A stretch of 64,000 nt of DNA from a virus (IMGVR_UViG_3300030450_002944:1-64000), one strand, 5' to 3'. Counted from the first letter of the stretch, positions 13,150 through 55,530 are shown. The notes: generated by a model not told the origin, from the sequence alone. Numbers and translations: made by a program.

Positions 13150-13212
13150 GGTATTGACTTACCTCTTTCAAATATGTTATAATCGTAGTATAGTAAATAC
13201 AAAAGGAGTATT

Positions 13213-14068: not shown

Positions 14069-14087
14069 CTTATAAAGGAAAAATTAT

Positions 14088-14301: not shown

Positions 14302-14303
14302 AT

Positions 14304-14642: not shown

Positions 14643-14806
14643 TGGATAGATATGAATTTGTAGACGAAATAGCACAAATACTAATAGATGAGAATAGTAT
14701 GGATTTGTTTGATATAGTGGTTCAGGGTTTGGACACTTGGTCAACTGCTGACTTACAAAACCTAGCAGAAGAATATTCATTAGTATTGTCTGTTGACAAT
14801 GCTTAA
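14642..14806 (+). CDS. small acidic protein, distant member of paralog family A (not in ORF track)
   Basis: MDRYEFVDEIAQILIDENSMDLFDIVVQGLDTWSTADLQNLAEEY; AAGGAG SD. Confidence 0.55.
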   Translation: MDRYEFVDEIAQILIDENSMDLFDIVVQGLDTWSTADLQNLAEEYSLVLSVDNA

Positions 14807-14850
14807 TTAAATATGTTACACTTTTAAGTAACAACGAATTTGGAGATCAA

Positions 14851-15936: not shown

Positions 15937-15989
15937 CATAGGTATTTCATTTATGCTATTATCTAATTAACGAAACTAATTAAGGAGAA

Positions 15990-16610: not shown

Positions 16611-16741
16611 GACAATGGAGAAGTGGGAAAAAAGAGATAAGAAACGAGATAGTAAAAAACGATTTAAAGATTATAAGAATAATATTAAGTCGATTACTAC
16701 GCTTTGGGATATTACTACAAAACCTAAAAGAAAGAAAGATT

Positions 16742-16990
16742 ATGAAAACGATAGCGAAGAATAGCCACACTTGTACAGAGTGTGGGAATAAAAAGAATAG
16801 CAGACATAATGCAAAACAAATATTCCATATAAAAACAAAGTGTGTTAGAAAGTCAAATTTTGTATTTGATAAAAGACATAAGATACAGGATAGATTTAAC
16901 TGTGTTTATATCTGTAAAGATTGTGGTGGCGAGAAATTATTTTTAGATATGACTAAGAAGAATATGCCAAAGTCAGAAGATGAAGAATAG
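16742..16990 (+). CDS. small zinc-ribbon protein
   Basis: CTEC...CKDC. Confidence 0.5.
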   Translation: MKTIAKNSHTCTECGNKKNSRHNAKQIFHIKTKCVRKSNFVFDKRHKIQDRFNCVYICKDCGGEKLFLDMTKKNMPKSEDEE

Positions 16991-17056
16991 GGTATTGACA
17001 TAGCCTATTCCAATATGATATAGTAAAGGTAACAACAGAAACGAAAGTATAGAACA

Positions 17057-17554
17057 ATGACTTTTAATAAAGCAAAAAACAAGTCAACAATTTGGCACAA
17101 CGAGGGACATCAATTAAGTGATTGGGCAAAGTCTGATTATAATTTAACTGTGACTCATAACAATTATGCAATTACAGATAATGGCAATCCTACAACTATT
17201 GAGGGTTTAGAAGAAGAATATAACCGAGTTGGTTGGCAGTCTTGTAATGAATGTTCTTATGATCCAAATGAACCATTTATTGAATGGAGATTGGTATCTG
17301 ATGACTATGATGAAGATGAACCTGATGATAGTGCATGGAACTTAGAAACTGTTGGTCATATCGGAATAATCTTTCCTATGCAAAGAACATTTCCAATCGA
17401 GGAATTTAGTTGTTTAAGTGGTGGTGGAAAAGTATGTTATTTATGCTTAGATACAATTACTTACAAATGGGCAGTTGATGAGGGTTGTCCACATATTCAA
17501 ATTAAAGAAAATGGTAAATGGGTAACTCAATACGATAGCAGTTTTTTTGGTTAG
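17057..17554 (+). CDS. early hypothetical protein with CxxC pairs
   Basis: CNEC...CYLC; own promoter. Confidence 0.6.
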   Translation: MTFNKAKNKSTIWHNEGHQLSDWAKSDYNLTVTHNNYAITDNGNPTTIEGLEEEYNRVGWQSCNECSYDPNEPFIEWRLVSDDYDEDEPDDSAWNLETVGHIGIIFPMQRTFPIEEFSCLSGGGKVCYLCLDTITYKWAVDEGCPHIQIKENGKWVTQYDSSFFG

Positions 17555-17619
17555 GGTATTGACTTAACTATATCAAATATGTTATATTGATTATAACAAC
17601 GAAAACTAAAGGAGAAAAT

Positions 17620-18054
17620 ATGGCTCTAACTTGGGACATAACAAAAGTAGATTTACCGAAAGAGGTAATATATGTAAAGAATGATGAGGGAGAAGAAAAC
17701 CTAAATCCAATTACTTGGTCAATTATTTGGTCAACAATCTTTCTTGGTATGAATGAACTTACCGAGAAGAACCTAAATGATTGGCACAGACGAATGAAAC
17801 AATTAGAAATGTGTGGAATGGGATTGCTTGGAGAAAAAGATAGTGATGTAAAACGTATGCCTAATCTAAGAGAACTCAAATTACACATTGGTTTAAAGAC
17901 AAATGGTTCTTTGATTAAAAAAGGTTCAGCATGGAATAGAGAATTAGTAAGACAAATTAATATGACTACTGATGAGATTGTTAAAAAAGAAAGAACAGAA
18001 TTAGCAGAAGTCGAACAAGTTGTAATAACTGATGATGAGGAAAATGATGAATAA
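17620..18054 (+). CDS. early hypothetical protein (start probably ATG 17620)
   Basis: AAGGAG SD before MALTWD. Confidence 0.65.
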   Translation: MALTWDITKVDLPKEVIYVKNDEGEENLNPITWSIIWSTIFLGMNELTEKNLNDWHRRMKQLEMCGMGLLGEKDSDVKRMPNLRELKLHIGLKTNGSLIKKGSAWNRELVRQINMTTDEIVKKERTELAEVEQVVITDDEENDE

Positions 18055-18265
18055 AGATTTATCAGAAATCAAAGTAGATGATGTAGAATTTACTAACTTA
18101 GATGATGAGATTTACGATAATTTATCGTGGTATTGTGATATGAATTTAGTAGATGAAACACCAAGATTAAAAAATAAGTTCTACGAAGTTAGAAACAAGA
18201 TGATTGATTTTATTGAAAGTGTAAGAGCAGAACAAGTAGAGGGCAAAGATGAAAGTAATTATTGA
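18032..18265 (+). CDS. small acidic early protein
   Basis: Coupled ORF. Confidence 0.55.
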   Translation: MMRKMMNKDLSEIKVDDVEFTNLDDEIYDNLSWYCDMNLVDETPRLKNKFYEVRNKMIDFIESVRAEQVEGKDESNY

Positions 18266-18599
18266 TTTAGAAGAGGATACTATCTACGCAGAAGATGATG
18301 AACAAGTAGAAGAAGAAATAATAATAGAAAATCCTACTGCTGAAAAGATTAAGAAATTAGTAGACTCTGGAATACCTGTTTATTGGTCTAATTGTAATTA
18401 TGAAATTATAAAAGACGAACATACTTACATGATTAAAGCAAAAACAAAAGAAGATGTTAGTCATCTTGAGGGTTATATCTTTACACTTATGGATAGTACA
18501 GGGTTCGACAGAGGTATTCGTTACTTAGACTTAACTGACAGAGCAGACAAATTATTAAATACACATGAGAAATATTTTTATATGAGAGGGCAAAGATGA
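18249..18599 (+). CDS. early hypothetical protein
   Basis: IKKLVDSGIPVYWSNCNYEIIKD motif recurs in phage early genes. Confidence 0.6.
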   Translation: MKVIIDLEEDTIYAEDDEQVEEEIIIENPTAEKIKKLVDSGIPVYWSNCNYEIIKDEHTYMIKAKTKEDVSHLEGYIFTLMDSTGFDRGIRYLDLTDRADKLLNTHEKYFYMRGQR

Positions 18600-18796
18600 A
18601 TAAAGAAAACGAAATGGATTTACATCAAGCGATTGAGATTATTGAAATGGAAGAAAATCCAACAGAAGATGAATATAGATGTGCTTGGCAATTTTTAGTA
18701 GATAAAGGACACGCTTGGAATTTACAAGGTTGGTATGGTAGAACTGCTATGAGTTTAATTGAAAGTGGATTTATACAGGGGAGAATAACAGGATAA
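18596..18796 (+). CDS. conserved small phage early protein
   Basis: AWQFLVDKGHAWNLQGWYGRTA is a widespread family motif of unknown function. Confidence 0.7.
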   Translation: MNKENEMDLHQAIEIIEMEENPTEDEYRCAWQFLVDKGHAWNLQGWYGRTAMSLIESGFIQGRITG

Positions 18797-19083
18797 TGAG
18801 TGAAGAAGAACTAACCATACAGAAACTACATTGGGATAATATTAAAAAAGGTTATCCACATATTGCAGATGATGATGACAATAATGGATATGTCTATGGC
18901 ATTGAATATAGTATAGGTTTGGGAGATACAGATCAACAATGGTTTAAGTCTGAAACAGAGCGAGATAGAATGGTAGAAGAAATGCTTATGGATATTTACC
19001 TAGAGATAGAAGAACCATATCAAGTCAATCCATTCGTAACAAATTTAATACAAGAACAAATGGATAAAGGATTATTAAGATGA
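18796..19083 (+). CDS. early hypothetical protein
   Basis: Coupled ORF. Confidence 0.55.
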   Translation: MSEEELTIQKLHWDNIKKGYPHIADDDDNNGYVYGIEYSIGLGDTDQQWFKSETERDRMVEEMLMDIYLEIEEPYQVNPFVTNLIQEQMDKGLLR

Positions 19084-19292
19084 TAGTAGATGTAAGAAGT
19101 GCTACAAGTGGATATATAGAAATTGGAGATTGGGTAGTTTATGTTGATGATAGTACAGGAGAAAGAATTATAAATTCTTGGGATAAGACTGACATAAGAC
19201 TTAACAATGAGGGGATAAAGTGTGGGGAAATAAAAGAACATACCTCAATGGGTACTAGATTAATAGACTACAAGAAAACAGGTCATGGATAA
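19080..19292 (+). CDS. early hypothetical protein
   Basis: Coupled ORF. Confidence 0.55.
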   Translation: MIVDVRSATSGYIEIGDWVVYVDDSTGERIINSWDKTDIRLNNEGIKCGEIKEHTSMGTRLIDYKKTGHG

Positions 19293-19524
19293 ACTATGTA
19301 GACAATTAAATAATGGTTTAACAATATTAGATGAAAACGAATTATCTGATAAGGATATAAACAACTGTGATAACTGTGGGGAATTAGACTATTATCCTAA
19401 TCTTATATGGGATAGTGATGAACTATGGTGGAGTAGTCAATATCTTTCAGATATGTCTGCTCAAAGTAAACTGAACGCTTTATGTGAAGAATGTTTTGTT
19501 CAATTAAAAGGTAGTAAAAAGTAG
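19285..19524 (+). CDS. small zinc-finger protein
   Basis: CDNC...LCEEC. Confidence 0.55.
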   Translation: MDKLCRQLNNGLTILDENELSDKDINNCDNCGELDYYPNLIWDSDELWWSSQYLSDMSAQSKLNALCEECFVQLKGSKK

Positions 19525-19584
19525 GGTATTGACTTATCTATTTTGATTATGCTATAATGATTATAGAAACTATAAAAGGAATAT

Positions 19585-20025
19585 ATGTTAAAAGATATAG
19601 AAATAAATACTAAAAGTTTAATCACTTTAATACAGGATATCTATGATACATTTGATGCTCTTGAAAAAGATAATGAGAAAGAAAACCTCAAATGGACAAT
19701 AGAGGGAAAATCAAAATCTCAACAAGCATTGATTATGACTTCTTTCTTTGAAGATATACAGAAGAAGAAAGGATTATCTGATCATTTAGTTAAGAGTTTA
19801 CAGAATGATAAATTCAAACTTACTAGAAAAATAGATAAATTGAAGAATGAAATCGCAGTATTGGAACAAGCCTACGATAATATTCAACATAAATATCTAA
19901 GCGTGGGGAGAGGAATAGATAGTACACATAGTGTATTAAAGAGATTAGCATTTGATAATAAACATCAAGTCTTTAAAGATGATATGTTAGTAAAGTTATG
20001 GAAGATTAAATCAGATTGGTATTGA
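19585..20025 (+). CDS. coiled-coil early protein
   Basis: Own promoter; heptad pattern. Confidence 0.6.
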   Translation: MLKDIEINTKSLITLIQDIYDTFDALEKDNEKENLKWTIEGKSKSQQALIMTSFFEDIQKKKGLSDHLVKSLQNDKFKLTRKIDKLKNEIAVLEQAYDNIQHKYLSVGRGIDSTHSVLKRLAFDNKHQVFKDDMLVKLWKIKSDWY

Positions 20026-20209
20026 AATGCGTGGGGAAAGAGAAATAGCCAAAGACTATGACTATAACATAGTATACTGTCAATGTAATAAACCTTTATA
20101 TATAGATGATATAGATGAAGAAAACAACTTGATAGCAATATGTGAAGATACAGATTGTGAGTATTGACTTACCTTTTATCAATATGCTATAATGATTATA
20201 GATAAAAAA

Positions 20210-20310
20210 GTAATTGATTAGAAACAATAAAGATACGAATGATTGAGTGTTGAGCAATGTATAGTTCATTACTAATCAACTCAACTGATCGCTAGTCGCT
20301 AATCAATTAC
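20210..20310 (+). ncRNA. candidate structured RNA 2 (about 100 nt, rod-like)
   Basis: Follows promoter 20164; perfect 12-bp GTAATTGATTAG/CTAATCAATTAC closing stem; inner TTGAGTGTTGA/TCAACTCAA stem. Confidence 0.6.
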
Positions 20311-20507
20311 ACTAATAAATAAGAGGTAAAAGACTATGAAAATGAGTAGAGGTTTAATGGAAATTAGTATAGATGAATTTCTTGCAGATAGAAAACCATG
20401 CGAATTACTATCAGAGTTTGGATTAGAACATAAACATACAACTGATTGTGATTTAATTGATGAAATAGTATATCAAGCGTATCTGTTAGGGGAGAGGAAT
20501 AGATAGT

Positions 20508-20801
20508 ATGAAAAAATATAGAGTAATATGCAATGAGGGAACAACATTTCTTTCAAGAACATGGAAGAATGGGGAAACAGAAGAAGAAATATATGAAATT
20601 TTTGAAGATTTCTATGAAACAGAGAATATGGGATTTGATGAAGAAATAGATGACTATATCCCAATGCCAAGAGAGTTAGATTATATTAGGGATCTATGGA
20701 ATGTAACCATAGAAGAAATAGAAGATCCTAATTACTCTGATGAAATAGGGGATTTATCTGAATGGGAATATAATAGTGGTAAAGTATCTTTATATAGATA
20801 G
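20508..20801 (+). CDS. very acidic small protein
   Basis: High E/D content. Confidence 0.6.
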   Translation: MKKYRVICNEGTTFLSRTWKNGETEEEIYEIFEDFYETENMGFDEEIDDYIPMPRELDYIRDLWNVTIEEIEDPNYSDEIGDLSEWEYNSGKVSLYR

Positions 20802-20915
20802 GGTATTGACTTACCTATATACGATATGCTATAATAGATATATAAGGTAAATAAAGATCGATATACAGAAATAGAGTAATAAATATATAGTAAATAAAAG
20901 GTAGGTATTGAATAT

Positions 20916-21404
20916 ATGGCTAAAACTAAGTTAAGAAAGCGAAAGCAATCTAATGGTACTTATAACCTAGAATATGACCCAATTCCAATGGATAGGGTAC
21001 GAAAACAGGGAATTGAGTACATAAAAGCAACAGAATTGGTTAATGGAACTATCTTTGAGGGTAGGAAGATACCAAGTAGAATAGTATGCTTTTATAATAT
21101 AAAAGACCAAGAGATATCTTGGAAGTATAATGAGGGGAAAGCAGAGGAAGTATGTAATGGGAATACAGACTATTGTTATCTAGTTAGAGATGATATGTTC
21201 TGTCCTAATGGATACTATCTATGTCTACCTCATAATCATATAGTGGATTGGAGAGTATCAGGATTGGATTATCACTTTCTCTCCCCACAGGAATTTGAAG
21301 AAGATGAGAAAATGACTATGGAAGAATATGGGAAAATACAGGAAAAAGACCATATTACTTCGTATGAGAATATGAAAGATAAATTTGATTATTTAAGTAA
21401 ATAA
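20916..21404 (+). CDS. early hypothetical protein
   Basis: 162-aa ORF with its own promoter and terminator. Confidence 0.65.
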   Translation: MAKTKLRKRKQSNGTYNLEYDPIPMDRVRKQGIEYIKATELVNGTIFEGRKIPSRIVCFYNIKDQEISWKYNEGKAEEVCNGNTDYCYLVRDDMFCPNGYYLCLPHNHIVDWRVSGLDYHFLSPQEFEEDEKMTMEEYGKIQEKDHITSYENMKDKFDYLSK

Positions 21405-21416
21405 CTTACCTTTTAT

Positions 21417-21452
21417 AAGGGGATAGGTTTTATGGTTTTTCCCTATCCCCTT
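21417..21452 (+). terminator. hairpin abutting the next -35 box
   Basis: AAGGGGATAGG...CCTATCCCCTT. Confidence 0.65.
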
Positions 21453-21489
21453 GACTTAGGTATAGCGAATATGTTATAATAATATTATA

Positions 21490-21593
21490 GGGTATTTAAG
21501 TATGCGAGGGTTGTCAGGGAAATTAGTAGTGAATGAACTGACCACAGAATGTGTTAATCCAACTACCCATACTTAACCACCCCCCCTTTTTTT
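21490..21593 (+). ncRNA. candidate structured RNA 3 (about 100 nt, standalone)
   Basis: Follows promoter 21451 with no ORF; TTAAGTATG/CATACTTAA stem, GTCAG/CTGAC and CAC/GTG hairpins, then a T-run. Confidence 0.6.
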
Positions 21594-21755
21594 CCTAAAG
21601 GAGTTATATGATATATCAGCAGCCACCACCACAGGAGAGGAAATAGGTATATATAAGGAATGGAAAAGGAGAGGAAATGGAGAAGGAAAGGGGTGGGAAA
21701 TGGAAAGGAAGGAAGGGGTCAAATGTCGCATAACTCCCCATGTGGTAGGGGGTAC

Positions 21756-22235
21756 TTAAAAGCACTCCCCTGATTGTTGCAATTCAAATATACTAGGTCC
21801 ACGATCTCTATGACGTATTAAGCTCTTATAGGCTTCTTGCAATCCCCATTCATAATAGAACGATTGACCAAATGACCTTTTGCACCACACAGTTAAACCT
21901 AGCATATCGTCAATTATAATTTCTCCCACTTCTCCGAGCCAATGTGCCAAATGATCAGAGATAAGAAAATATTGCATTACTTCTCCCTGTTTCCATTCAA
22001 TAAGTGCTTCTTTAAACTCTGGCTCTTCCATGTCTGGTAGGTTTTCAGGGTCATATCCCTGTCTAAAATCTTCTATATCTTCTGATGTTATAGCGTTTTC
22101 GGTTGCTATATATAAACTCTCGTAACTGTCGTCTTGCTCAAAGAACCTTTCGGCTACTTCGTTTACAAGATATAGTACGTTCTTATCACACCATTTCTTA
22201 AAGTCTTTATCTTCTGCTAATTTGTCGCTATTCAC
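21756..22235 (-). CDS. conserved phage early protein
   Basis: EVMQYFLISDHLAHWL...GE...GLTVW...GQ family pattern; two tandem promoters upstream. Confidence 0.7.
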   Translation of the reverse strand: MNSDKLAEDKDFKKWCDKNVLYLVNEVAERFFEQDDSYESLYIATENAITSEDIEDFRQGYDPENLPDMEEPEFKEALIEWKQGEVMQYFLISDHLAHWLGEVGEIIIDDMLGLTVWCKRSFGQSFYYEWGLQEAYKSLIRHRDRGPSIFELQQSGECF

Positions 22236-22498
22236 TTTTTACTCCTTTATTAGTTTTTACTTATATATCAATAATAGCATATATAGGGGGGGTAGGTCAA
22301 CCCCTGATATATCCTATAACTCCACCTACTATTATTATATCATATAGGGAAGGGGTCTGTCAAGGGAAAAGGGAAGGAAGGGAAAAGGGAAGGAAGGGGA
22401 TAGGGGGACTGGAGTTATGCGATTATGGGTAGTGGCTCAAAGAGAGAGCCACCACACAATTACGCCAACCACTATTAAGATTTCCAATCAATCCCCTT

Positions 22499-22753
22499 TT
22501 ACCACATAGAGTCAAATGCTTTAACCATGTTAGCCTGTACTTCATACCTAGATGCGTCTACCTGAACGTCTTGACCATCAATTATTACATAATCAATATC
22601 ATGAGCATAGATACTACCAATTTCTGTAGCATAGCCATACACTTTAGCCATTCTGATATTACCTTTTTTGTTGTCCATCATCTCAAACTTCCAACCATTT
22701 TTTTGGTATCCGACTGTCCCTTTTTTTATGTCATTAGGTTCAATAGTTTTCAT
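22499..22753 (-). CDS. conserved small phage early protein
   Basis: NDIKKG...MMDNKKGNIR...EIGSIYAHDI motif. Confidence 0.7.
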   Translation of the reverse strand: MKTIEPNDIKKGTVGYQKNGWKFEMMDNKKGNIRMAKVYGYATEIGSIYAHDIDYVIIDGQDVQVDASRYEVQANMVKAFDSMW

Positions 22754-22808
22754 AGTTCCTTTTTGCTAGTTTTTTCTTTATGTAATAAGTATATCATATT
22801 TGATCACT

Positions 22809-22973
22809 CTATGTCAACTCAATGTTTACAATTTCTTTGTCTGTTAATTTAATATTGTGTTGCTCATAAAAGTTATCTTTTACATTTTGGATAAATTCTT
22901 TTTTGGTTTCTCCATAATTATTTATCGCAAATGATAATTCTATTTCACAGAACCATTCTTTTTCTTCACTCAT
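22809..22973 (-). CDS. small hypothetical protein (54 aa, not in ORF track)
   Basis: AAGGAG SD and own promoter; MSEEKEWFCEIELSF... Confidence 0.6.
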   Translation of the reverse strand: MSEEKEWFCEIELSFAINNYGETKKEFIQNVKDNFYEQHNIKLTDKEIVNIELT

Positions 22974-23054
22974 TTTCGTACTCCTTTATTTAAGTATAGC
23001 ATATTTGATCATTCTATGTCAATAGGGATATATCATATAACTCCAAAAAAAATA

Positions 23055-23371
23055 AATTTAACTAAGCGTGGCGAAGGTGTCAGATTGAATGAAACTCACT
23101 TTCAAACTTAGACTTACGATATCATGATATGATCGTGCTACATCAGGCTACAACTTCGGCTTTCTATCCTAGGCTAGTGGCGGAAGTGATACATCTGGCT
23201 CAACGTCAGGGAACAGAGGGATCTGCAAGATACTCTATTTCTATTCGTTTATCTGAACTTGTACTAAAAGTTCGTTAACAATTAAGTACAACTGATAGTT
23301 TGACAATAACCTTCAAAAGTTTCTGTACAGGTTGCGAACCTATGAGCCTACTTAACCACGCTTATTAAATT
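23055..23371 (-). ncRNA. candidate structured RNA 4 (about 315 nt)
   Basis: No ORF; 16-bp closing stem 23055-23071/23356-23371; long-range GGCTCA/TGAGCC; several hairpins; U-run after the stem on the minus strand. Confidence 0.7.
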
Positions 23372-23376
23372 GTTAA

Positions 23377-23485
23377 ACAAGATTGATGATCGGTTGTTAT
23401 AGACCGAATTTAATCTGTCCACATTCCCTACTTCGTTGTATTGGTAAAATGTTATTCACATTCATCGTTACTTCCTCAACCTTGT
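23377..23485 (-). ncRNA. candidate structured RNA 5 (about 110 nt), co-transcribed upstream of RNA 4
   Basis: Starts at the predicted TSS; ACAAGGUUGA/UCAAUCUUGU stem includes a G-U pair valid only on the minus strand. Confidence 0.65.
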
Positions 23486-23616
23486 AATATAAGTATAGCA
23501 TATTAAAGAGTGGTAATGCAATACCTTGATATATCATATAACTCCTCTTAAAAAAAGAGGGCAGGTGGGGGAAGGGGAAAAATGAAAAAACCCCAAACCC
23601 CTCTTGTACCTACCTA

Positions 23617-23853
23617 TTACATTTCCTCAGCCATTGCCCAAAGGATAGGCTCAACTTCACTAGATATCTGTAAATGGAAGTCGCAACACTTTAACCTGTC
23701 GTTCATTTGATCTTTGGAAAAGATTAGAATATCCTTTATGGAAAAGGCTTTCCTATCTTTACAATCAAACCATTGTCGCCAATACCCTTTATCAGAGTCC
23801 ACTTCATAGTGAACATTCTCGTTTCTATATTTAAAAGTTCCTTTAGCTTTCAT
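23617..23853 (-). CDS. early hypothetical protein
   Basis: SD and downstream G/C hairpin terminator (23551-23612). Confidence 0.6.
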   Translation of the reverse strand: MKAKGTFKYRNENVHYEVDSDKGYWRQWFDCKDRKAFSIKDILIFSKDQMNDRLKCCDFHLQISSEVEPILWAMAEEM

Positions 23854-23854
23854 C

Positions 23855-24046
23855 TTAACCTCTATTCATTTCTATATATTTTTCATTTAGTTCTGTTCTT
23901 ATTACATCGCAATCATCAGAACACACAACATTATTTCCATAACATTCTGTATGATCTTTTTGATAGTTTTTCCACTCTAAAATTTCATCATCTGTTAGAG
24001 TGAAAGACTTAGGGTGTTTATGTGAGTTGCTAATCCAAGATATCAT
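23855..24046 (-). CDS. early hypothetical protein
   Basis: Promoter 24076-24105 and AAGGA SD. Confidence 0.6.
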   Translation of the reverse strand: MISWISNSHKHPKSFTLTDDEILEWKNYQKDHTECYGNNVVCSDDCDVIRTELNEKYIEMNRG

Positions 24047-24092
24047 TTTATTCCTTTACTTGTTTCTATACTTATATTATAGCATATTTAAT

Positions 24093-24191
24093 GTAGGCTT
24101 GTCAAGTGTGTCTTGTTTAGATTTACATATAACGACTTGCAAGAGCTTTCAGGATCAGGGAATACTTACTCAACCCCACTTGACTACCTAC
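24093..24191 (-). ncRNA. candidate structured RNA 6 (about 100 nt)
   Basis: Starts at the predicted TSS of promoter 24199-24228; GUAGG-UA-GUCAAGUG pairs with CACUUGAC-AAG-CCUAC; no ORF. Confidence 0.55.
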
Positions 24192-24250
24192 TAAGTATAT
24201 AATAACATATATGAAGTAGTGAAGTCAATACTGGATATATCATATAACTC

Positions 24251-24309
24251 CCATAAAGAATGTGTCCCATAAAGAATGTGTCCAGTAAAGAATGTGTCCA
24301 GTAAAGAAT
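24251..24309. repeat. 16-bp tandem repeat x3.7 (C(CA/AG)TAAAGAATGTGTC), iteron-like
   Basis: Units start at 24251, 24267, 24283 and 24299. Confidence 0.9.
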
Positions 24310-24379
24310 ACGAGGATTTTTTTCACAAAAAACTTTTCTCCCAAGTCAATGGGCTAGGTGGGCTAGATTTTTAAATCCT

Positions 24380-24517
24380 CTATTGGATGTCGTCTGAAAT
24401 CTTCAGATCAGGAGAGAGGTCATTCCAGTTAAGGATTTCCTCTACTTCTTTATCGGCAGACTCATCATTCCTACCGACACTCATTAGGATTTCATCTATT
24501 AGTTCTCTTAGAGTCAT
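24380..24517 (-). CDS. small acidic protein (45 aa, not in ORF track)
   Basis: GGAGGT SD; MTLRELIDEILMSVGRND... Confidence 0.6.
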   Translation of the reverse strand: MTLRELIDEILMSVGRNDESADKEVEEILNWNDLSPDLKISDDIQ

Positions 24518-24631
24518 AATAGACCTCCACTTTTTTTGGTTTTGTTTTATCGACCTAATATAAGTATAACATATATTCTTTTTACGTCAAACCCCTACCC
24601 CCCATTGATATATCATATAACTCCAAAAAAT

Positions 24632-24672
24632 GAGAGTATAGAAAGAAAAAATGTAAAACTTCCTATACTCTC
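24632..24672 (-). terminator. terminator abutting an 18-bp box
   Basis: GAGAGTATAG...CTATACTCTC with a minus-strand U-run. Confidence 0.7.
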
Positions 24673-24738
24673 TTAATTGTTAATGTTCTTCACATTTAGG
24701 GCAAATAATAGTTGAGCCATTTCTTATACAATCGCAAC

Positions 24739-24966
24739 TCATAAGGGTAATTTTCCAGACTCTTTTTTCTGTTCCCACGTTGCCGACTCTATAGCACCTC
24801 TGAAAATCTGTTCATTAAAGTTTGGGTTATCATCTGCAAATATTTTGCATAATTCTTGGTATAGTATATCAGGGTCTATATATTGAAAACTGCTTGTCGC
24901 AGAGTCAATAAATTTTATACTGTTTTTCCACACGTCCACAAATTTTATGTAATCTTTTTTAGTCAT
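24739..24966 (-). CDS. conserved small phage early protein
   Basis: MTKKDYIK...F.DDNPNF...F family pattern. Confidence 0.7.
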   Translation of the reverse strand: MTKKDYIKFVDVWKNSIKFIDSATSSFQYIDPDILYQELCKIFADDNPNFNEQIFRGAIESATWEQKKESGKLPL

Positions 24967-25069
24967 CTTTTTTTCCTTTTTATTAGTTGATACATTAAGT
25001 ATAGCACATTAAAGATTATTAATGCAATACCCCCACCCCTATTGATATATCCTATAACTCCAGTTGAAA

Positions 25070-25375
25070 TTAAATGAAATCAACTGAATTAGGTTCTTGT
25101 CTAGTTATTAGAACTGAATCTTGTTCAAATTTAGTTTTATATTTTAGGGCAACTTTATTAACCACGTTGATATAATTAATATTATTTTTTTCATGAAGGA
25201 TAGATACAACTTTAGTTTTCTCTTTAGTTCCCTTCCAATAACCTGTAATTTCTGATACTGAAAAACCTTCAACTTCATTAGCAAGTTCAGTATCTAGAAA
25301 ACTATTAAATTGTTTATCTGATACAACTGACTTATTTTTTATATCAGTTCCAAAATATATTAATGTGTTTATCAT
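25070..25375 (-). CDS. DUF3574-like protein, candidate SAM lyase (T3 SAMase-like fold)
   Basis: YFG...VSDKQF..FLD...GFSV....GYWKG..EKTKV...YK..FEQDSVL. Confidence 0.6.
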   Translation of the reverse strand: MINTLIYFGTDIKNKSVVSDKQFNSFLDTELANEVEGFSVSEITGYWKGTKEKTKVVSILHEKNNINYINVVNKVALKYKTKFEQDSVLITRQEPNSVDFI

Positions 25376-25379
25376 TTTA

Positions 25380-25559
25380 TTACCATACCTTCCGTTCTAG
25401 AGTTTGCTTTATTCTTAGTTCATTAATCTTAGCTTTAGTTAATGGTTTAGGTTTAGATCCATTGCCCTTAACAACTGTTATACATTTTCCATTTTTTCCA
25501 ATGGGTACAATCAGTCTTGACTTACTTCTTTTAACTTGTCTTTTACTTGGTATATTCAT
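25380..25559 (-). CDS. small basic protein (59 aa, not in ORF track)
   Basis: MNIPSKRQVKRSKSRL...; follows promoter 25592-25621 and an SD. Confidence 0.55.
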   Translation of the reverse strand: MNIPSKRQVKRSKSRLIVPIGKNGKCITVVKGNGSKPKPLTKAKINELRIKQTLERKVW

Positions 25560-25683
25560 TTTTTTAATCCTTCTTTTTAGTTACTATAATTATTCTATCA
25601 TTTTATTTACTACCATGTCAACCCCTGATATATCATATAACTCCCCCGAAAAATAATAAAAATCGGGGGGAGAGAGTAATTAA

Positions 25684-25911
25684 TTAATCGTCAATGTTTG
25701 GTTGTTCCATTCTTGCGATATGGTTATCCACAATGTACCCTGAATATATTTCATCAGAGAGAATGAAAATCTGTTTCCAGAATAACCCTGATTGAGTATC
25801 AAGAAAATCTTCATCTTCTTTAACACCTGATTTAATAATCGCTAATGCTAAATCGTTGTATCCCTGTGCTATTGCTTGTTCTTTATCTAATCCATTATAA
25901 TCTGTAGCCAT
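25684..25911 (-). CDS. early hypothetical protein
   Basis: Own promoter, AAGGAG SD and terminator 25641-25672. Confidence 0.65.
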   Translation of the reverse strand: MATDYNGLDKEQAIAQGYNDLALAIIKSGVKEDEDFLDTQSGLFWKQIFILSDEIYSGYIVDNHIARMEQPNIDD

Positions 25912-26019
25912 TTTTTAAATCTCCTTTGATTTAATTTATTTATTTATTTAACCTATAATTATTGTCTCATGGATTTGATTTTTTTACAACCCCCATGATA
26001 TATCCTATAACTCCTCTGC

Positions 26020-26244
26020 TTATTCGTACACCTCCCCTAATAAGTCGCCGTCTGCTTCTTGAGGTGTATCAAAATCTACAACCTCATAATTTTCTATGGC
26101 GTGTTTCTGTACTGTAGGTATGCCCTGATCCTCGCAAGCCTGCAACCTTTTTAAAGGCGTTTTGTAGCCGTCATCATCTGCCTGATACGCAGACTCCCAG
26201 TCCCAGTTCTCAGCCCAAAATTTTAAGTTCTCTAAGTTATCCAT
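26020..26244 (-). CDS. small acidic early protein
   Basis: Own promoter and AAGGAG SD. Confidence 0.65.
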   Translation of the reverse strand: MDNLENLKFWAENWDWESAYQADDDGYKTPLKRLQACEDQGIPTVQKHAIENYEVVDFDTPQEADGDLLGEVYE

Positions 26245-26380
26245 TTTTTCTCCTTAACTAAATTTAACTATACCTATAGTATATCACATATTCAAAACTT
26301 GTCAACCCTGTGCCACTCGGCTCAACTAGGGATATATCACATAACTCCACTTCAGCCGAAAAAAAACTGAAGTGAGTATA

Positions 26381-26524
26381 TTAATCGTTCTGAAAATATT
26401 CAATCATAAGTTTAAAGTGTTCCCTATCTAGTTTTTCAACTGGGACATGTTGCAATAATTCCATTAACATATTAACAATAGTATTTAATTTTATATCTAT
26501 TCGTTCTAAGTCTAATTTATCCAT
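26381..26524 (-). CDS. small helical protein (47 aa, not in ORF track)
   Basis: AAGGAG SD; MDKLDLERIDIKLNTIVNML... Confidence 0.6.
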   Translation of the reverse strand: MDKLDLERIDIKLNTIVNMLMELLQHVPVEKLDREHFKLMIEYFQND

Positions 26525-26623
26525 TTTATTATTTCTCCTTTAGTTGTTTATTGTTTTAATTTAATTTTTTATTTATTTTTTATTTCTCCCTTCTACTTAA
26601 TATTACGTGTAATAAAGGGTAAA

Positions 26624-26656
26624 AAACGTCAGAGAAACATCAGAAAAACGTCAGAG
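26624..26656 (-). promoter_or_regulatory. three 11-bp direct repeats (AAACRTCAGAR) in place of a -35 box
   Basis: AAACGTCAGAG-AAACATCAGAA-AAACGTCAGAG upstream of 26381..26524. Confidence 0.6.
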
Positions 26657-26716
26657 TTTTTTATATTCAAAAAACAAACTGAAGTAAGTATATTAAGATT
26701 ATGTATAATAAAATTT

Positions 26717-26947
26717 TCATTTTAAATCTCCTATAATAATTTGAAAATCCATATTCCCAGAGTTCTCATCACCTCCCACAATAGTGATGAAATCCTTTTG
26801 AGAAGGATCATCAATATCAAAATAGTGTGACTCCACCCAGTAGCAGTAACCACACATAACCACTTCATCACCATCTACATCAACCACCAATCCCCAAGAT
26901 GCTATTTGGTTTATTATTAAGTTGCAGAAGTTACATTCTTTATTCAT
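26717..26947 (-). CDS. small zinc-finger protein
   Basis: CNFC...CGYC; AAGGAG SD. Confidence 0.6.
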   Translation of the reverse strand: MNKECNFCNLIINQIASWGLVVDVDGDEVVMCGYCYWVESHYFDIDDPSQKDFITIVGGDENSGNMDFQIIIGDLK

Positions 26948-27124
26948 TTTTTTAAATCTCCTTTATTTGTTTTTTGGGCATAGTATCCCGTATTTATAAT
27001 ATTAGCACATTTGGGGTCAAAAGGAGTTATATGATATATCCCGTACCACTCCCATTTATTTACCTCAGCCGTAAACGAACTGGAGTAAATAAATTAAAAT
27101 GATATATAATAAAATTTTCATCAG

Positions 27125-27325
27125 TTACGCCTTTCTATCTACAATTGTTGCTGAATATTTTCTACTCATTAAAAATAATTTAGAACCATTAGGGCTAGTT
27201 ATTTCCAAATCTCCAAAATCATCATAATCATCTTTATCAACTGACTTTTCTATCGCTTCTTTTTTTGATTTAGCCACAACCGTTTTGTAAGCAATCTGGG
27301 TTTCTTTGATTAAGTATTCTTTCAT
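27125..27325 (-). CDS. small early protein
   Basis: V.AKSKKEAIEK motif; own promoter. Confidence 0.65.
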   Translation of the reverse strand: MKEYLIKETQIAYKTVVAKSKKEAIEKSVDKDDYDDFGDLEITSPNGSKLFLMSRKYSATIVDRKA

Positions 27326-27430
27326 TTTTTTCTCCTTTTGTTATTTAACCTTATATAGATATTTTACAATACCACCCCCCTTATTGCAACCCCTTTGGAG
27401 TTATATGATATATCCTTTGTATTTTTATTA

Positions 27431-27459
27431 TTTACAATGTGGCTTACATGTAATAGAAT
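27431..27459 (+). promoter_or_regulatory. rightward promoter TTTACA-N17-TAGAAT, 16 bp downstream of an 18-bp box
   Basis: Read directly from the sequence. Confidence 0.6.
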
Positions 27460-27500
27460 AATATTAGATTAAATAAATAAGTAAACCGAAAGGCGAAAAA

Positions 27501-27929
27501 ATGACTAAACAAGAAATTAAAGCGTGGGTGAAATTACAAGATAATATCAACATGCAAAAAACATTTGATACTATCACTACTAACTTACGCCCACTAGATA
27601 AAGAAATCCTTAGTAGATTTATTATAGAAAAGGACACTATAAAAAATATTACTGAATGGCTAAATTCAGAATTAGGTCTAAATTTAACTACTTTTAAAAC
27701 TTCCAAAATTATTAAGACAATTCAAAGATACTTAGTAGCTTTATATCATGACACACCACATCATATTAGAGATGCCCGAAAAATGGGAATGTCTGTTACA
27801 AGATTCGTACCTACAACCAATGCTCCCGCTACTCCACATATAATAGTGGAGCAGAAAAAATACATTGGGGACATCTGTATTTCTAGAACTATCAACATCA
27901 AAAGAAGCAAGAGCGGTTATTGGAAGTAA
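27501..27929 (+). CDS. sigma70 region-4-like helix-turn-helix protein, candidate regulator
   Basis: LRPLDKEILSRFIIEKDTIKNITEWL...TSKIIKTIQRYL matches the region-4 pattern by eye. Confidence 0.5.
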   Translation: MTKQEIKAWVKLQDNINMQKTFDTITTNLRPLDKEILSRFIIEKDTIKNITEWLNSELGLNLTTFKTSKIIKTIQRYLVALYHDTPHHIRDARKMGMSVTRFVPTTNAPATPHIIVEQKKYIGDICISRTINIKRSKSGYWK

Positions 27930-27940: not shown

Positions 27941-27975
27941 TCCCCTTGTCAGAATAGATGAGGGGAATTTTCTTT
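27941..27975 (+). terminator. intrinsic terminator
   Basis: TCCCCTTGTC-AGAATA-GATGAGGGGA then a T-rich run. Confidence 0.7.
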
Positions 27976-29106: not shown

Positions 29107-29529
29107 ATGTATACATATAAATGCACAGTTACAAAAGTAATAGATGGAGACACTATTGATGTTGATATCCAATTAGGGTTTAATGTTATTCTATATAAAC
29201 AAAGAATAAGATTACATGGGATAGACACGCCAGAATCTAGAACTAGGAATTTGGAAGAAAAGGCTAGAGGATTACTTTCAAAAGATTTTATGAAGAAATT
29301 GGCTCCTGTCGGATCTTCCATTACTTTAAAGTCCTTAGAAAAAGGAAAATTTGGTAGGATATTAGGTATTATTTGGCAAGAAGGGGATGAATGGGAAACT
29401 GATTCTCCAATAAACGACTTAATGATTGAAAACTATCATGCAGTTCCATATACTGGACAAAACAAGAACGATGTAGAATCTTTACATGAAGCTAATAAAC
29501 TCAAGCTAATTGAAAAGGGAATCTTGTAA
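29107..29529 (+). CDS. thermonuclease (SNase-like) family protein
   Basis: KVIDGDTIDV, IRLHGIDTPE and KFGRILG. Confidence 0.9.
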   Translation: MYTYKCTVTKVIDGDTIDVDIQLGFNVILYKQRIRLHGIDTPESRTRNLEEKARGLLSKDFMKKLAPVGSSITLKSLEKGKFGRILGIIWQEGDEWETDSPINDLMIENYHAVPYTGQNKNDVESLHEANKLKLIEKGIL

Positions 29530-29530
29530 A

Positions 29531-32500
29531 ATGCCAGACATTGATGCAATGACAGAAAAGTTAATGAAGGATCCTGATTTTCAGGCTAAGATAGGTAAAA
29601 CTAAGCGTGAAACTGCTCAAGAAGAGGCTACTCAAAGAGCACATCAACATAGAAAAAATTCTATGGCATTAGCATTAGGTAATGAGAGTAAGACTGCTGT
29701 AGAACATTTAAGTGAATATGCTAAATTAGAGGCTCAACGAAAAGAGATTGATGAAATGGTTTTCGGTGTTCCTACTGAAGAAATTCGAGATAAGATGGCA
29801 CGTCCTCTCAATGTGGTTGATATAGACATAAATGATCTTACTTTGAGTCCACCACCAGCTAATACAAGTACTCAGGTTAAAGAAGAATTAGAGACCATCA
29901 TTGATAAACATCTTCAAACAAAAGAAGATACAGATAATTTTGAATTTGAGATTGCAAAGCCTGCTGAAATACAAGATTTAGATATTTTAAAATCTTTCAT
30001 TAAATTAGCTGAAGAATTGGGACTTAGTGATGATATTACTAAAAAGAAATTAGAAGTAATAAAAGATGATTCTGCTACTATTGTTTTAAATCTAAAATAT
30101 TATTTCAATAGACCTAGACCTGAACAATTAATGGACTATCATGGAGTAGATTTTAAACCTGCAGATTTCAAAACTTCTGATACTCCTGCTTATCCATCTG
30201 GACATGCCTTTCAAGGTACATTAATTGCATTGATTTTATCTGAAGTGTTTCCACAACATGCAGATTCGTTTATGAAACTTGGTGAATCTATTGGTGAGAA
30301 TAGAGTAATTTTCGGTGTTCATTATCCTTCAGACCACGCCGCTGGTATAGAATTAGCAAAACAGGTTTTTCCTTATGTAAATTTTGAGAAATTAGATTTT
30401 AAACCCATTCCACAGGAATCCCAACCTTTAGAAAAAGACTTACCTAATATAGAAAAAGCTACAGGTATAGAAATTGCAGCTACAGGAGCAGCTCTAGCAT
30501 CTGGAGGAATAGCATTATGGGATTTATATCAAGCTTTTAAGAAAAATAAAAAATTAAAGCAGGAAGATAAAGTAGAATTAAACGAAGCTTTAGAGGAAAA
30601 TGAAGATAGTTTAAAAGAAACAAAAATTGATATAAAAGAAGATGAATTACCAGATTTAGAAAATGCTGATAATGTAGATGAATTAATAAGTGGTGTAAAA
30701 AATCCAGACAAAGCTGAACCAATTATTGAGAAAGTTAGGAAAAAAAGATGGGATTCTGGACTAAGTAAAGAAGACGCAGCTAAAATTAGAGCTGAACGTG
30801 AGGCTAAAAGAAAGGATGCTGCTACTCCTTTACCTAAAATTGGAGAAGGTGTAGAAGAACCAAAAGGTGAAGAACCTAAAAAAGTAGACGCTGAAAAGAA
30901 AGAGTCTGAACAAGTAGAGGAGAAGAAAGAGCCTCGAAAAATTCCTTTAGATATCCATAGTAAAAAAACTCTTATTGATAACATTGGTAAATTAGTAAAT
31001 CATATTCCTACTCATAGAGGAAAAAATGATAGTGATACTTCTAGAGGAAAATTTAATGCTTCTCAAATAAATCCAGATACATCATCTTTAGATCCTGTAG
31101 TACATCAATCATTTGAAAATTGGAGTACCCGAAACCCAGAAGATTTACATGATCATTTAAATTCCCTATCTGAAGAGAAATTAAGAGCTATAGCTTCAGC
31201 GTTAGGAGAACAAGCTAACCAAGTCGCTCCGGGTAGTGAATTGAATCCAGTAGGTTCATCAACAAGATTAGGTATTTTAGGTAGAATGCTTAGAGACGAT
31301 AAATCAGGTAAAAAAGAAATAGAAGGTGTATCTAATAAGGATTACCAAACAGCTTTAAGAGATTCTTTAAGTAGAGCTGTAAATTCTAATCACGATATAA
31401 CAGTTCCGGGTGGTGAAGAAGAAATTGTAGAAGCTGCTAATGAGAATTTAGAAGAAGAAACAAGACCTTCACCTGAAGAAGAGGCTAGAAGAAAATATGA
31501 AGCGGAACAAAAAGCAAAACGAGATGCTGAAGAGGCAGATAAAAAAGAAGAGGAATCTAAAGATAAAAAAACAGGGGGTCCTTCTCCTTTTGCAGTAGAA
31601 GAAGAGAGTAAACCAATTAATTTAGATGAAGCTGATTTAGGTAAGATTAAACTTGGTGACTCTAAAGAACTTACTAATTTAAATGGTTATCTATCAGATG
31701 CTAAATATGGTGGAATAAAAGGTCAAGAATTTACTAATGAAGATGGTACAGTAAAATCAAGATACATGCATGGTTTACAAGAATATATTAAAAAGAATCC
31801 TACTTCAGCTAAAATTGGTACTGATGGTTCAGTAGAGTTTGATCCTGAATACATAGGTAATTTAACAAAACACTTCTCAGAAAACCATGATGATGCTGCT
31901 ATGAGTAGATTATGGGAGAAAAACTATAGACATAAAGGAGCAAGTGATACATCTTCTATTGGATATGGTGATTATTCTCCATCAAAAGAAGCAAGAGGGG
32001 CTATACTTTCTAGAAAAGAAAAAATGGATAAAGTTATGGAACAACAATTTGGAGAAGATTGGGAAGATTCTAATGACTTTGATGTGAGAGCTGAAAGAGA
32101 ACATCTTCAATCAATGGATTCAAAAACATTTAATAAACATTTTGATACTGCATATTTAAAACCATTGAGATCTCAGAGACAAAAAGATAGGACTGCAGGT
32201 ATAAAAGCAGAGACCCCCAAAGATCCTAATAAAGAACGATGGAATTTAAAGGATTCTAGTCCTGATGAAGCCTATGAAAAAGCTAAAGAAATGATAGCTC
32301 ATTCACTTGAACATAGTGAAGAACATGGTGGAAAAGGTTTAGACGAAAAGACTGTTTCTCATATGAATAAACAACTATCAGCTGCTCGTAAAGCAATGGG
32401 AGCTGATAATATTAAAAAACTTAACCAAGAAATCAAAGATGGTAGTATCCAACCTACTAAAGCTGAAGAGCCTAAAGAGGATAAAGATTACGAAGGATCA

Positions 32501-55155: not shown

Positions 55156-55530
55156 ATGAAGCTTACTACTAAAGTAATTAAATATAGGACTAGAAATCCT
55201 TTGATGTCAACACATCAAATTTCAAGAGAAACTGGAGTTTCATATTCTTGGGTACATGCTATATTAAAGAAAGCAAATCTATCAACAAACCCACCCAAAA
55301 GAAATAAGAGTTCTCGTATATGTCCTGAATGTAATGAACTCTTTACATCAAGACGTAAATTTTGTAGTTCTGAGTGTAAATATAATTATCAGCGTCCTGT
55401 GTTTGAATGCCATTACTGCCATTCTAAATTTCGTAGATTACGAAAAGATGTGGTTAGATCTATTAAAAAAGGCTCAAAACACATATTTTGTGATATAAAA
55501 TGTTGGAATAGATATAGGAGAGTAGAGTAA
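55156..55530 (+). CDS. HTH plus zinc-finger (TRASH-like) protein
   Basis: THQISRETGVSYSWV; CPEC...FCSSEC; CHYC...FCDIKC. Confidence 0.7.
   Translation: MKLTTKVIKYRTRNPLMSTHQISRETGVSYSWVHAILKKANLSTNPPKRNKSSRICPECNELFTSRRKFCSSECKYNYQRPVFECHYCHSKFRRLRKDVVRSIKKGSKHIFCDIKCWNRYRRVE

Follow-up and report, generated by a model that had tools for sequence, protein, structure and literature searches.

An uncultured marine phage (G000) carries, between positions 21600 and 27414, twelve copies of an 18-bp box, GGAGTTAT-nn-GATATATC, and the evidence supports its being a discrete, strongly selected element phased to promoters. We see about an even chance that the box is an operator for a protein acting on RNA polymerase and doubles as a crossover point resembling the PeSL (promoter-early stem-loop) motifs of other phages.

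The box and its conservation

At up to three mismatches, 12 matches were found against 0.21 expected, and none of 100 shuffles reached 12; eight copies are perfect and four carry one mismatch. The coordinates and strands of all twelve, as given in an earlier sequence-only reading of the window (the whole 64,000-nucleotide stretch analysed), were reproduced, and its claim that there are no copies elsewhere held for the window and for the whole 81,307-bp record, where none was found beyond the twelve. The boxes span 5.8 kb of 81.3 kb rather than being distributed through the genome, and in both G000 and its complete relative G001 every copy is restricted to one array. All G000 copies are intergenic and flanked by real genes, and only two half-site remnants of GGAGTTATGCGA are present in this genome.

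Box copies and remnants in G000
21600..21617, minus strand: copy 1, perfect; plus strand reads GGAGTTATATGATATATC; after the T-run of a rightward RNA unit; no promoter follows
22306..22323, plus strand: copy 2, one mismatch, central AG; 5 bp upstream of −35 TTGACC, promoter for 21756..22235; a tandem upstream promoter (22363-22334) would start transcription at about this copy
23027..23044, plus strand: copy 3, perfect; gap 4 to TTGACA; directly after the T-run of the RNA cassette
23528..23545, plus strand: copy 4, perfect; gap 6 to TTGCAT; heads the ORF-free RNA cassette
24234..24251, plus strand: copy 5, perfect; gap 5 to TTGACT
24607..24624, plus strand: copy 6, perfect; gap 16 to TTGACG; G-rich filler
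25044..25061, plus strand: copy 7, one mismatch; gap 16 to TTGCAT
25627..25644, plus strand: copy 8, perfect; gap 5 to TTGACA
25997..26014, plus strand: copy 9, one mismatch; gap 7 to TTGTAA (weaker promoter)
26331..26348, plus strand: copy 10, one mismatch, central GT; gap 25 to TTGACA
27023..27040, minus strand: copy 11, perfect, inverted; GGAG end 2 bp from −35 TTGACC, leftward promoter for 26717..26947
27397..27414, minus strand: copy 12, perfect, inverted; in a divergent promoter region, 16 bp to rightward TTTACA (27501..27929) and 7 bp to leftward TTGCAA (27125..27325)
21720..21737, plus strand: degenerate half-site remnant, GGAGTTATGCGA on the minus strand; beside a purine-rich tract
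22408..22425, minus strand: degenerate half-site remnant, GGAGTTATGCGA on the plus strand; at the corresponding position, behind the same hairpin, G001 carries a complete box

The identical box is present in at least nine other marine contigs. Across 53 non-redundant copies from 10 contigs, 16 of the 18 positions are invariant, an apparent invariance inflated by the collection of some copies through exact-pattern scans, while the flanks show background frequencies; variation is confined to positions 9-10 of GGAGTTAT[AT]GATATATC. Since orthologues encoded by the two complete genomes often share just 40-90% protein identity, this constancy points to strict selection on the box.

The box is an invariant mixed sequence that includes GGAG and a terminal C, with a core that alternates TA and has no A-tracts. 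It had been described as a 7-1-7 pseudo-palindrome and proposed to bind a dimeric protein. The resemblance between the arms stands, with agreement at six of seven positions, but the invariant half GGAGTTAT is asymmetric, and the two 8-mers are unlike each other and lie at variable spacing (0 or 1 nt in three G001 copies, 0-2 nt across some copies), making a rigid dimer site of this form doubtful. Of the two, GATATATC, the 8-mer nearer the promoter, forms a perfect palindrome; in a more distant relative the site reads GGAGTTAT-A-GATATC.

Position and phasing relative to promoters

The box comes after one unit has ended and before the −35 of the following σ70-type promoter, and a strong σ70-like promoter, TTGACw-16/18-TAtAaT with TG, adjoins 41 of the 53 copies. 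The leftward gaps originally read as 5, 4, 6, 5, 16, 16, 5, 7 and 25 bp were recovered, as was the distance of 16 bp that separates the inverted copy at 27397-27414 from the rightward promoter of 27501..27929 (TTTACA-17-TAGAAT). Among all contigs the gaps are 3-7, 14-16 or 25-26 bp, with no intermediate values, and the helical phasing proposed for the window extends to 23 promoter clusters or families in 10 contigs (R = 0.80, period 10.5 bp, Rayleigh p ~4e-7, an approximate value because many of the families are related). Fillers in the long gaps are unrelated in sequence, so the constraint is on length. Inverted copies are still 2-9 bp from a −35; those at 27023 and 27397 have a leftward −35 at 2 and 7 bp, on the GGAG side.

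With a 5-bp gap the box covers about −42 to −59, the UP-element zone, which raises the question of whether it is an unusually specific UP-like element that boosts the array promoters and is read by host RNA polymerase itself, through the alpha C-terminal domains or sigma, with no extra factor. UP elements reportedly work after whole-turn and not half-turn displacement (Meng et al. 2001), a tolerance matched by the three gap classes, and the box core is AT-rich. The agreement in position (−40 to −60) and whole-turn spacing is one of geometry only, however: UP elements are degenerate A/T tracts, whereas the box combines 16 invariant positions with GGAG, a terminal C and alternating TA. Equally strong phage promoters elsewhere lack it and some boxes lack a promoter, and we judge this explanation quite unlikely. 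The promoters in question are at least 13 box-less, equally strong rightward ones (TTGACw-18-TATAAT), located at 10.5-21.5 kb and at 28598; the array, too, has internal promoters without a box, at 24105, 22817 and 28562. The box is therefore not part of the basal promoter but an addition peculiar to the leftward array. For five copies (G000 21600, G001 12596, L078 1113, L099 364 and L048 3435) neither side carries a promoter, so promoter control cannot be the box's sole role.

All five promoter-less copies come after a terminator hairpin, in the standard orientation. At least six T are found in the 12 nt preceding 19 of the 53 boxes, and a hairpin with a T-run is visible before many; a strict-consensus scan returned 3 terminator-like sites against 4.1 expected. 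Relative to incoming transcription, about 46 of the 53 copies are oriented alike. These features, and the asymmetry of the box, would suit a roadblock or insulator of the “stoperator” kind, in which protein bound after a terminator stops read-through and leaves each cassette on its own promoter. Cluster A mycobacteriophages (L5, Bxb1, TipsytheTRex) likewise have many short asymmetric sites in short intergenic spaces, theirs with an orientation bias relative to transcription; L5-type repressors bind more than 20 such orientation-dependent sites as monomers with two DNA-binding domains (PMC9283540), a mode of recognition that would suit the two unlike 8-mers. In contrast, stoperators are 13-mers placed genome-wide in temperate phages whose repressor is known (PMC9283540), while the sites described here are 18 bp long, phased to the −35 and gathered in one array within 5.8 kb, and no repressor or lysogeny genes were found. 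About seven copies face incoming transcription in reverse, and the phasing to the downstream −35 would be left unexplained. We therefore hold a stoperator role to be very unlikely.

Cassette exchange at the boxes

Most units have the layout first described for them, with a box followed by a promoter, a small ORF or RNA, and a terminator.

Cassettes of the array
21756..22235, minus strand: gene “A”, the last cassette, encoding an acidic 159-aa protein without a family; found in all arrays recovered, at 51-57% identity
22499..22973, minus strand: two small ORFs, 84 aa and 54 aa, each with its own TTGACA-18-TATACT promoter; 84-aa gene inverted in G001
23055..23485, minus strand: ORF-free transcribed cassette, candidate structured RNA; box-to-box conservation of 76-79% in six contigs
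23617..24046, minus strand: two small ORFs, 78 aa and 63 aa; internal box-less promoter at 24105-24076; short leader from the boxed promoter
24380..24517, minus strand: 45-aa ORF cassette
24739..24966, minus strand: 75-aa ORF cassette “D”; G001 homology ends at the outer box edge
25070..25559, minus strand: two-gene cassette, 59-aa ORF and 101-aa DUF3574 / SAM-lyase-like protein; candidate anti-restriction function
25684..25911, minus strand: 75-aa ORF cassette
26020..26244, minus strand: 74-aa ORF cassette
26381..26947, minus strand: cassette of a 76-aa ORF (79% identical in G001) and a 47-aa ORF
27125..27325, minus strand: 66-aa ORF cassette between two inverted boxes; missing from L057, replaced in L045
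27501..27929, plus strand: 142-aa protein, rightward cassette; own terminator at 27941-27966

The SAM-lyase-like protein and the acidic 159-aa protein are in keeping with early anti-defence genes, the likely content of the array. The RNA cassette has no Rfam match, and its homology runs exactly from box to box.

Comparison of the sequences indicates that the boxes mark where related phages have swapped cassettes. The cassettes run A B C D E F G H in G000 but A D B(inverted) G F E C H in G001, genomes that are otherwise syntenic. Homology blocks end within 10 bp of a box in 54 of 283 cases against about 16 expected (about threefold), and these ends concentrate at box positions 1 and 18-19, a pile-up exaggerated by the extension through the box of alignments that stop near one. 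Between close relatives, indel and replacement ends fall in the box-containing motif; the 66-aa cassette, for example, is a box-bounded indel or replacement. With this shuffled order and the homology breaks at box edges, the suggestion that the boxes make the cassettes modular, offered at first as an alternative to regulation, is supported.

Exchange of this kind might also reflect site-specific recombination at a dedicated site, the phage counterpart of integron attC/attI, where a phage recombinase cuts and rejoins inside the box to capture, excise or invert cassettes, the promoter association being secondary. Box-bounded cassettes that are inserted, deleted, replaced, reordered and in one case inverted between relatives are in keeping with this, as are the symmetric centre of the palindromic GATATATC, which would allow both deletion and inversion, the promoter-less boxes, and the several contigs that end at a box, as expected of a population polymorphic there. 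A topoisomerase-IB / tyrosine-recombinase-like domain is present in a 1129-aa fusion protein of the phage, although the matches are to Topoisom_I (1e-07) and, below threshold, to Phage_integrase only, and the ORFs scanned yielded no integrase or resolvase family. An 18-bp site with unconserved flanks is short for the core site of a tyrosine or serine recombinase, and the helical phasing to the −35 would be left without a reason. In replacements, moreover, homology reaches 60-70 bp past the box into the promoter and terminator flanks, which looks homologous rather than site-specific. Integrons also delimit arrays of small exchangeable accessory genes with a repeated site, but their cassettes are promoterless and their attC sites are imperfect palindromes of 57-141 bp recombined as folded single strands by IntI, whereas each unit here has its own promoter and an 18-bp site. 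Site-specific recombination is thus unlikely, if the least improbable of the alternatives.

The box and its promoter and terminator flanks are the sole sequence common to otherwise unrelated cassettes, which would make them a crossover point for homologous exchange. Such exchange at the boxes would insert, delete, replace and reorder cassettes in the manner of the PeSL motifs of T4-type phages. Genes for RecA and RuvC are present in the phage.

PeSLs were described in T4-type phages as mobile regulatory cassettes (Arbiol et al. 2010, PMC2839356; Comeau et al. 2014, PMC4122927), for which homologous exchange has been proposed as the mechanism (PMC2839356, PMC4122927). In both systems a strong early promoter of σ70 type, combined with a terminator in PeSLs and probably also at many of the boxes, lies between small ORFan genes of a plastic region, and indels, replacements and reordering between close relatives end in the motif. 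Upstream of the −35, PeSLs have only a loose AT-rich stretch, in contrast to the exactly conserved, helically phased 18-bp bipartite box. They belong to hyperplastic regions of T4-type myoviruses, whereas this phage is not T4-like, having an SU10-type MCP, a podovirus-type tail tube protein, an 81-kb genome and its own ECF-like sigma, with no T4 core genes seen. The box array behaves like a PeSL without belonging to that class.

A putative box-binding protein

In the reading we favour, an operator that doubles as a crossover point, the two parts of the box (GGAGTTAT + GATATATC) would together form an asymmetric site recognised by a putative sequence-specific DNA-binding protein, most likely encoded by the phage and conserved in both complete genomes. 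Occupying about −42 to −59, directly upstream of the −35, or a place shifted outward by one or two turns, this protein would lie beside host RNA polymerase on a single helical face. The leftward accessory/anti-defence cassettes would be co-regulated as one block, apart from the box-less rightward early promoters. As the boxed promoters are already near-consensus, coordinated damping or shut-off seems somewhat more probable than activation, and would resemble the action of Aca repressors at anti-CRISPR promoters or of phi29 p4 at A2c.

Several known systems share parts of this arrangement. Class I activator sites, UP elements and phi29 p4 likewise occupy one helical face upstream of the −35 and tolerate whole-turn displacement, and p4 activates or represses through the same alpha-CTD contact according to promoter strength; the box differs in being neither A-tract-like nor symmetric like a CRP site. 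In the P1 C1 and RK2 KorA/KorB operator circuits, a mobile genome repeats one regulator site at some 10 or more of its promoters, and KorB class I sites lie just upstream of the −35. As with the box, a single site is repeated at many promoters, but theirs are replicon-wide and their regulators known, and we know of no relationship to cassette junctions described for them.

The sequence-only reading had put forward the product of 27501..27929, a sigma-region-4-like protein, as a candidate that would bind the box and possibly autoregulate the regulon. A probable likeness to sigma region 4 was recovered by structural comparison; it involves the N-terminal ~86 residues (AF2 pLDDT 70-80 over residues 1-90, the C-terminal part being poorly modelled), and about 25 of the top 30 VIA-align matches are sigma region 4 domains (Z 5.2-7.6 over 57-80 aligned residues, a Z range common for small helical domains). 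Foldseek E-values were 0.7 or worse, and Pfam, PHROG and PDB-sequence searches gave no match, Sigma70_r4 included. The gene lies behind a boxed promoter, and its homologues in L057 and L045 also have a box upstream, but such adjacency is uninformative because every array cassette does. In the other contigs the gene is just another cassette with different promoters, and its box-promoter gaps vary from 16 bp here to 6 and 3 bp. A sigma region 4 domain normally reads a −35-like hexamer as a monomer, and a single one is not expected to cover an 18-bp site. The pairing failed in the complete G001 genome, which keeps 10 boxes and has no homologue of the protein, an outcome that the original reading had itself set against the pairing. 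Across the contigs compared, the 142-aa HTH gene is a mobile cassette and not the dedicated partner of the box, and we find the autoregulatory model highly improbable.

Except for this non-conserved protein, no recognisable DNA-binding domain was found among the array ORFs of G000 and G001. Conserved candidate binders are encoded outside the array, namely a 124-aa protein with an HTH and two zinc ribbons (55156..55530) and the ECF-like sigma.

The leftward array and its 18-bp box

The stretch from 21.7 to 28.5 kb is the sole leftward block of the genome by GC skew and ORFs. Read leftward, its units run from a box through 3–25 bp to a σ70-type promoter with an extended −10, a strong Shine-Dalgarno sequence, one or two ORFs (45–159 aa) and a hairpin/T-run, after which the next box follows. 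ORF-free transcribed DNA takes the place of ORFs in some units, box-less internal promoters occur in some (24105, 22817 and 28562), and one promoter (22363–22334) is directed into a box. In and beside the array lie:

27397: inverted box copy within a divergent promoter region
27023: inverted box copy, GGAG side 2 bp from a leftward −35
21600: inverted box copy without a promoter, behind a rightward RNA unit's T-run
25070–25375 (−): DUF3574/S-adenosylmethionine-lyase-like protein, 101 aa (3.6e-15)
23055–23485 (−), 24093–24191 (−) and 21490–21593 (+): ORF-free units with strong promoters

The array products, for the most part ORFans, include the SAM-lyase-like protein, whose candidate anti-restriction function, suggested by sequence similarity, recalls T3 SAMase, and the strongly acidic 159-aa protein of the terminal cassette (gene A); this content fits an early accessory/anti-defence module. 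The ORF-free units are candidate structured RNAs of the phage. The largest (23055–23485) is 76–79% conserved in six contigs, precisely box to box; it falls in no Rfam family, and scanning the array for Rfam families and tRNAs gave no significant match. The array resembles an interchangeable kit of small RNAs and of early genes that are probably anti-defence.

The count of 12 boxes made in the sequence-only reading was reproduced: the 18-mer, GATATATCATATAACTCC on the + strand and GGAGTTATATGATATATC along the leftward genes, matches 12 times in the window versus 0.21 expected, perfectly in eight copies and with one mismatch, always at the central dinucleotide, in four. No further copy lies outside the array in the whole 81,307-bp IMG/VR virus record that contains the window (estimated 99% complete). 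Both 8-mer halves are essentially array-restricted, GGAGTTAT occurring 14 times, all within 21600–27414 (two as GGAGTTATGCGA remnants), and GATATATC 13 times in the genome, 12 of them inside boxes. Exact-pattern scans found the identical box, clustered, in nine further sequences: six contigs from metagenomes and three records of IMG/VR, among them the complete G001. Across 53 non-redundant copies, 16 of the 18 positions are 100% conserved, and a single base beyond its ends conservation is already at background. The box is a real element under strong selection.

The promoter-proximal 8-mer is a perfect palindrome. A rigid 7-1-7 palindrome, after the 7-1-7 pseudo-palindromic core first noted, is disfavoured: in G001, a complete relative of 82,411 bp with 10 boxes, three copies beyond those of the exact pattern have the 8-mers 0 or 1 nt apart, and a more divergent contig, IMGVR_UViG_3300037586_001921, which came in through aligning protein A and whose own protein A is 55% identical, has a shortened variant, GGAGTTAT-A-GATATC, in two places (150–176 and 918–935). 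Judged from these spacings and this variant, the element is best read as two unlike 8-mers. A scan for the variant revealed no additional arrays. Around gene A of the same record lie GGAGTTATGC half-sites and pyrimidine-rich tracts.

A role as translation start (GGAG-4 nt-ATG) was ruled out, the ATG being lost in variants AG, GT and AC and in deletions. Full-text search found no paper containing the 18-mer. When 185,579 species genomes were scanned for the exact pattern, the matches listed were all single and at chance level, with no box cluster and no host regulon among them.

Repeats of other kinds adjoin some boxes. At 24249–24309, a 16-bp unit (TCCAATAAAGAATGTG; 95% matches) repeated 3.8 times in tandem adjoins the box at 24234, downstream of a 45-aa ORF. 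Gene A is flanked by purine-rich + strand repeats of the GGAAAGG type (21655–21710 and 22362–22398); both tracts adjoin a box or a GGAGTTATGCGA remnant, and the second lies upstream of promoter 22363–22334.

Helical phasing of box and promoter

A simple promoter scorer was run on all box copies. The −35 gaps noted earlier were recovered, as was the geometry given for inverted copy 27397; gaps on the ATC side measure 3–7, 14–16 or 25–26 bp, with none at 8–13 or 17–24. When promoters more than 75% identical were merged, the proposed phasing held across the resulting 23 families (R=0.80, Rayleigh p about 4e-7 at 10.5 bp). A gap of 5 bp places the box at roughly −42 to −59. The 14–16-bp fillers range in composition from G-rich through AT-rich, which argues that filler length is conserved and that the filler is not an inserted element. 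Where a copy is inverted, the promoter next to its GGAG side is 2–9 bp off, so the box centre stays at a similar distance.

The box is missing from at least 13 rightward promoters whose consensus is equal or better (10.5–21.5 kb and 28598), and is therefore an added layer that only the leftward array has. These promoters share just GGG(TA) ahead of the −35 plus an ATATGy extended −10. Those at 10543–21480 (+) are near-identical (GGGTA-TTGACw-18-TATAAT, ATATGy) and drive small ORFs and RNAs.

Because conservation is sharp over 18 bp, confined to one array and coupled to whole-turn phasing, the box is best explained as a protein operator, the predicted protein acting on RNA polymerase from one helical face. 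Direct, UP-like contact by RNA polymerase itself would account for the geometry but leaves the specificity unexplained, while a stoperator-like roadblock would account for the orientation bias and the promoter-less copies and fails to explain the phasing.

Exchange of cassettes between boxes

The whole record and G001 are syntenic gene for gene everywhere but in the array, where the eight shared genes run A B C D E F G H in the former and A D B(inverted) G F E C H in the latter. The RNA cassette aligns precisely box to box (23027–23545 versus G001 11713–12205, 77%), and for cassette D the alignment with G001 reaches as far as the box's outer edge. When all contig pairs are pooled, 54 of the 283 ends of homology blocks fall within 10 bp of a box versus about 16 expected, and these cluster at box positions 1 and 18–19. 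A 66-aa cassette between two inverted boxes is absent in contig L057 and replaced in contig L045, where 60–70 bp of flank homology is kept. The shuffled order and the homology breaks at box edges uphold the other suggestion of the sequence-only reading, that the boxes make the cassettes modular. The same shuffling behaviour has been described for the PeSL motifs of T4-type phages (PMC2839356, PMC4122927), which this box-bounded shuffling resembles; at the array junctions a regulatory cassette junction of PeSL-like type and a putative multi-copy operator come together.

On the operator reading, cassettes would be shuffled as a result of having no sequence but the box in common. Among the gene products of the phage are RecA and a RuvC-like resolvase, along with DnaB, primase, PolA, RNR, small terminase, portal, an SU10-type major capsid protein (MCP), tail tube and tail fibre. 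A pure site-specific recombination site would account for the modularity and, if real, would define a new cassette-capture system in lytic-type phages, but it leaves the phasing unexplained, and no recombinase for it turned up among the ORFs scanned. A long shot is an "integron-like" platform in which a dedicated phage enzyme targets the box, excising, capturing and inverting self-promoted anti-defence cassettes. Its enzyme might be an unrecognised recombinase/nickase or part of the following protein, which is conserved in G001:

73902–77291 of the whole record (L034:9902–13291), beyond the window: CCA-type nucleotidyltransferase (PolyA_pol 3e-20) plus HD, fused with a topoisomerase-IB-like catalytic domain (1e-07), 1129 aa in all

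If true, this would place a site-specific gene-shuffling system in an abundant marine phage lineage. The operator reading and its rivals could be true together; we infer the binder, the pathway of exchange and the sign of regulation.

The lineage is a common marine one: IMG/VR has 441 capsid relatives, and the array is present in runs from 14 studies. Against 50,697 phage records, megablast with the array gave no match and tblastn with the DNA polymerase and MCP gave distant matches only, so neither a cultured relative nor a host was found. Searches with neighbouring proteins reached close relatives only, and long contigs bearing the MCP end short of the array region. Neither the box nor a repeated 12-mer occurs in more distant phages that have the SNase gene too; they are not syntenic with this genome and hence uninformative on the box. 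The invariant, promoter-phased 18-mer at every junction offers a handle for array discovery in viromes, and the array a natural test case for regulatory sites doubling as recombination linkers behind phage mosaicism.

Candidate binding proteins and a second motif

The 142-aa product of 27501..27929 had been put forward as a region-4-like protein and as the box's cognate regulator. It has eight marine homologues and no match in Pfam, PHROG or, searched with the family, PDB sequences. Its AlphaFold model is confident for residues 1–90 only and gave nothing significant in Foldseek; the VIA-align list consists mainly of sigma region-4 domains (SigB, SigL, sigma-28, SigF, sigma-A, SigR and others; Z 5.2–7.6), making the resemblance plausible at the level of the predicted fold. 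The pairing with the box did not survive comparison: the gene is absent by three methods from the complete G001, though G001 has 10 boxes, and no DNA-binding family was found among the G001-specific array ORFs. In L057 and L045 the gene lies behind different promoters, with box gaps of 6 and 3 bp. By this distribution it is a cassette, not a dedicated array regulator.

Elsewhere the genome holds:

55156–55530: conserved 124-aa protein with an HTH and two zinc ribbons, just upstream of the ECF-like sigma gene
55828–56250: Hsp20 gene, likewise just upstream
56250–56774 (+): ECF-like sigma (Sigma70_r2 2.6e-12; ECF and r4 weaker)
9693, 28857, 29093, 40018, 43593 and others (+): motif tAGTATAATAGTATA, also before late genes beyond the window

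The arrangement of the first three genes is reminiscent of phiEco32-type temporal control, and the 124-aa protein is a reasonable candidate for the box binder, unlinked to the box; the 18-mer provides a defined bait for the putative regulator. The box was rejected as the ECF-like sigma's own promoter, late and rightward genes all being box-less, with tAGTATAATAGTATA recurring among them. This motif, found before rightward genes (seven matches with at most two mismatches versus 1.0 expected), might serve as promoter for the phage sigma; it has no relation to the box. A staphylococcal-nuclease-like gene (29107–29529, +) and the gene for a 1231-aa protein with a PAP2 phosphatase domain (29510–33205, +; 3e-13) open the long rightward block.
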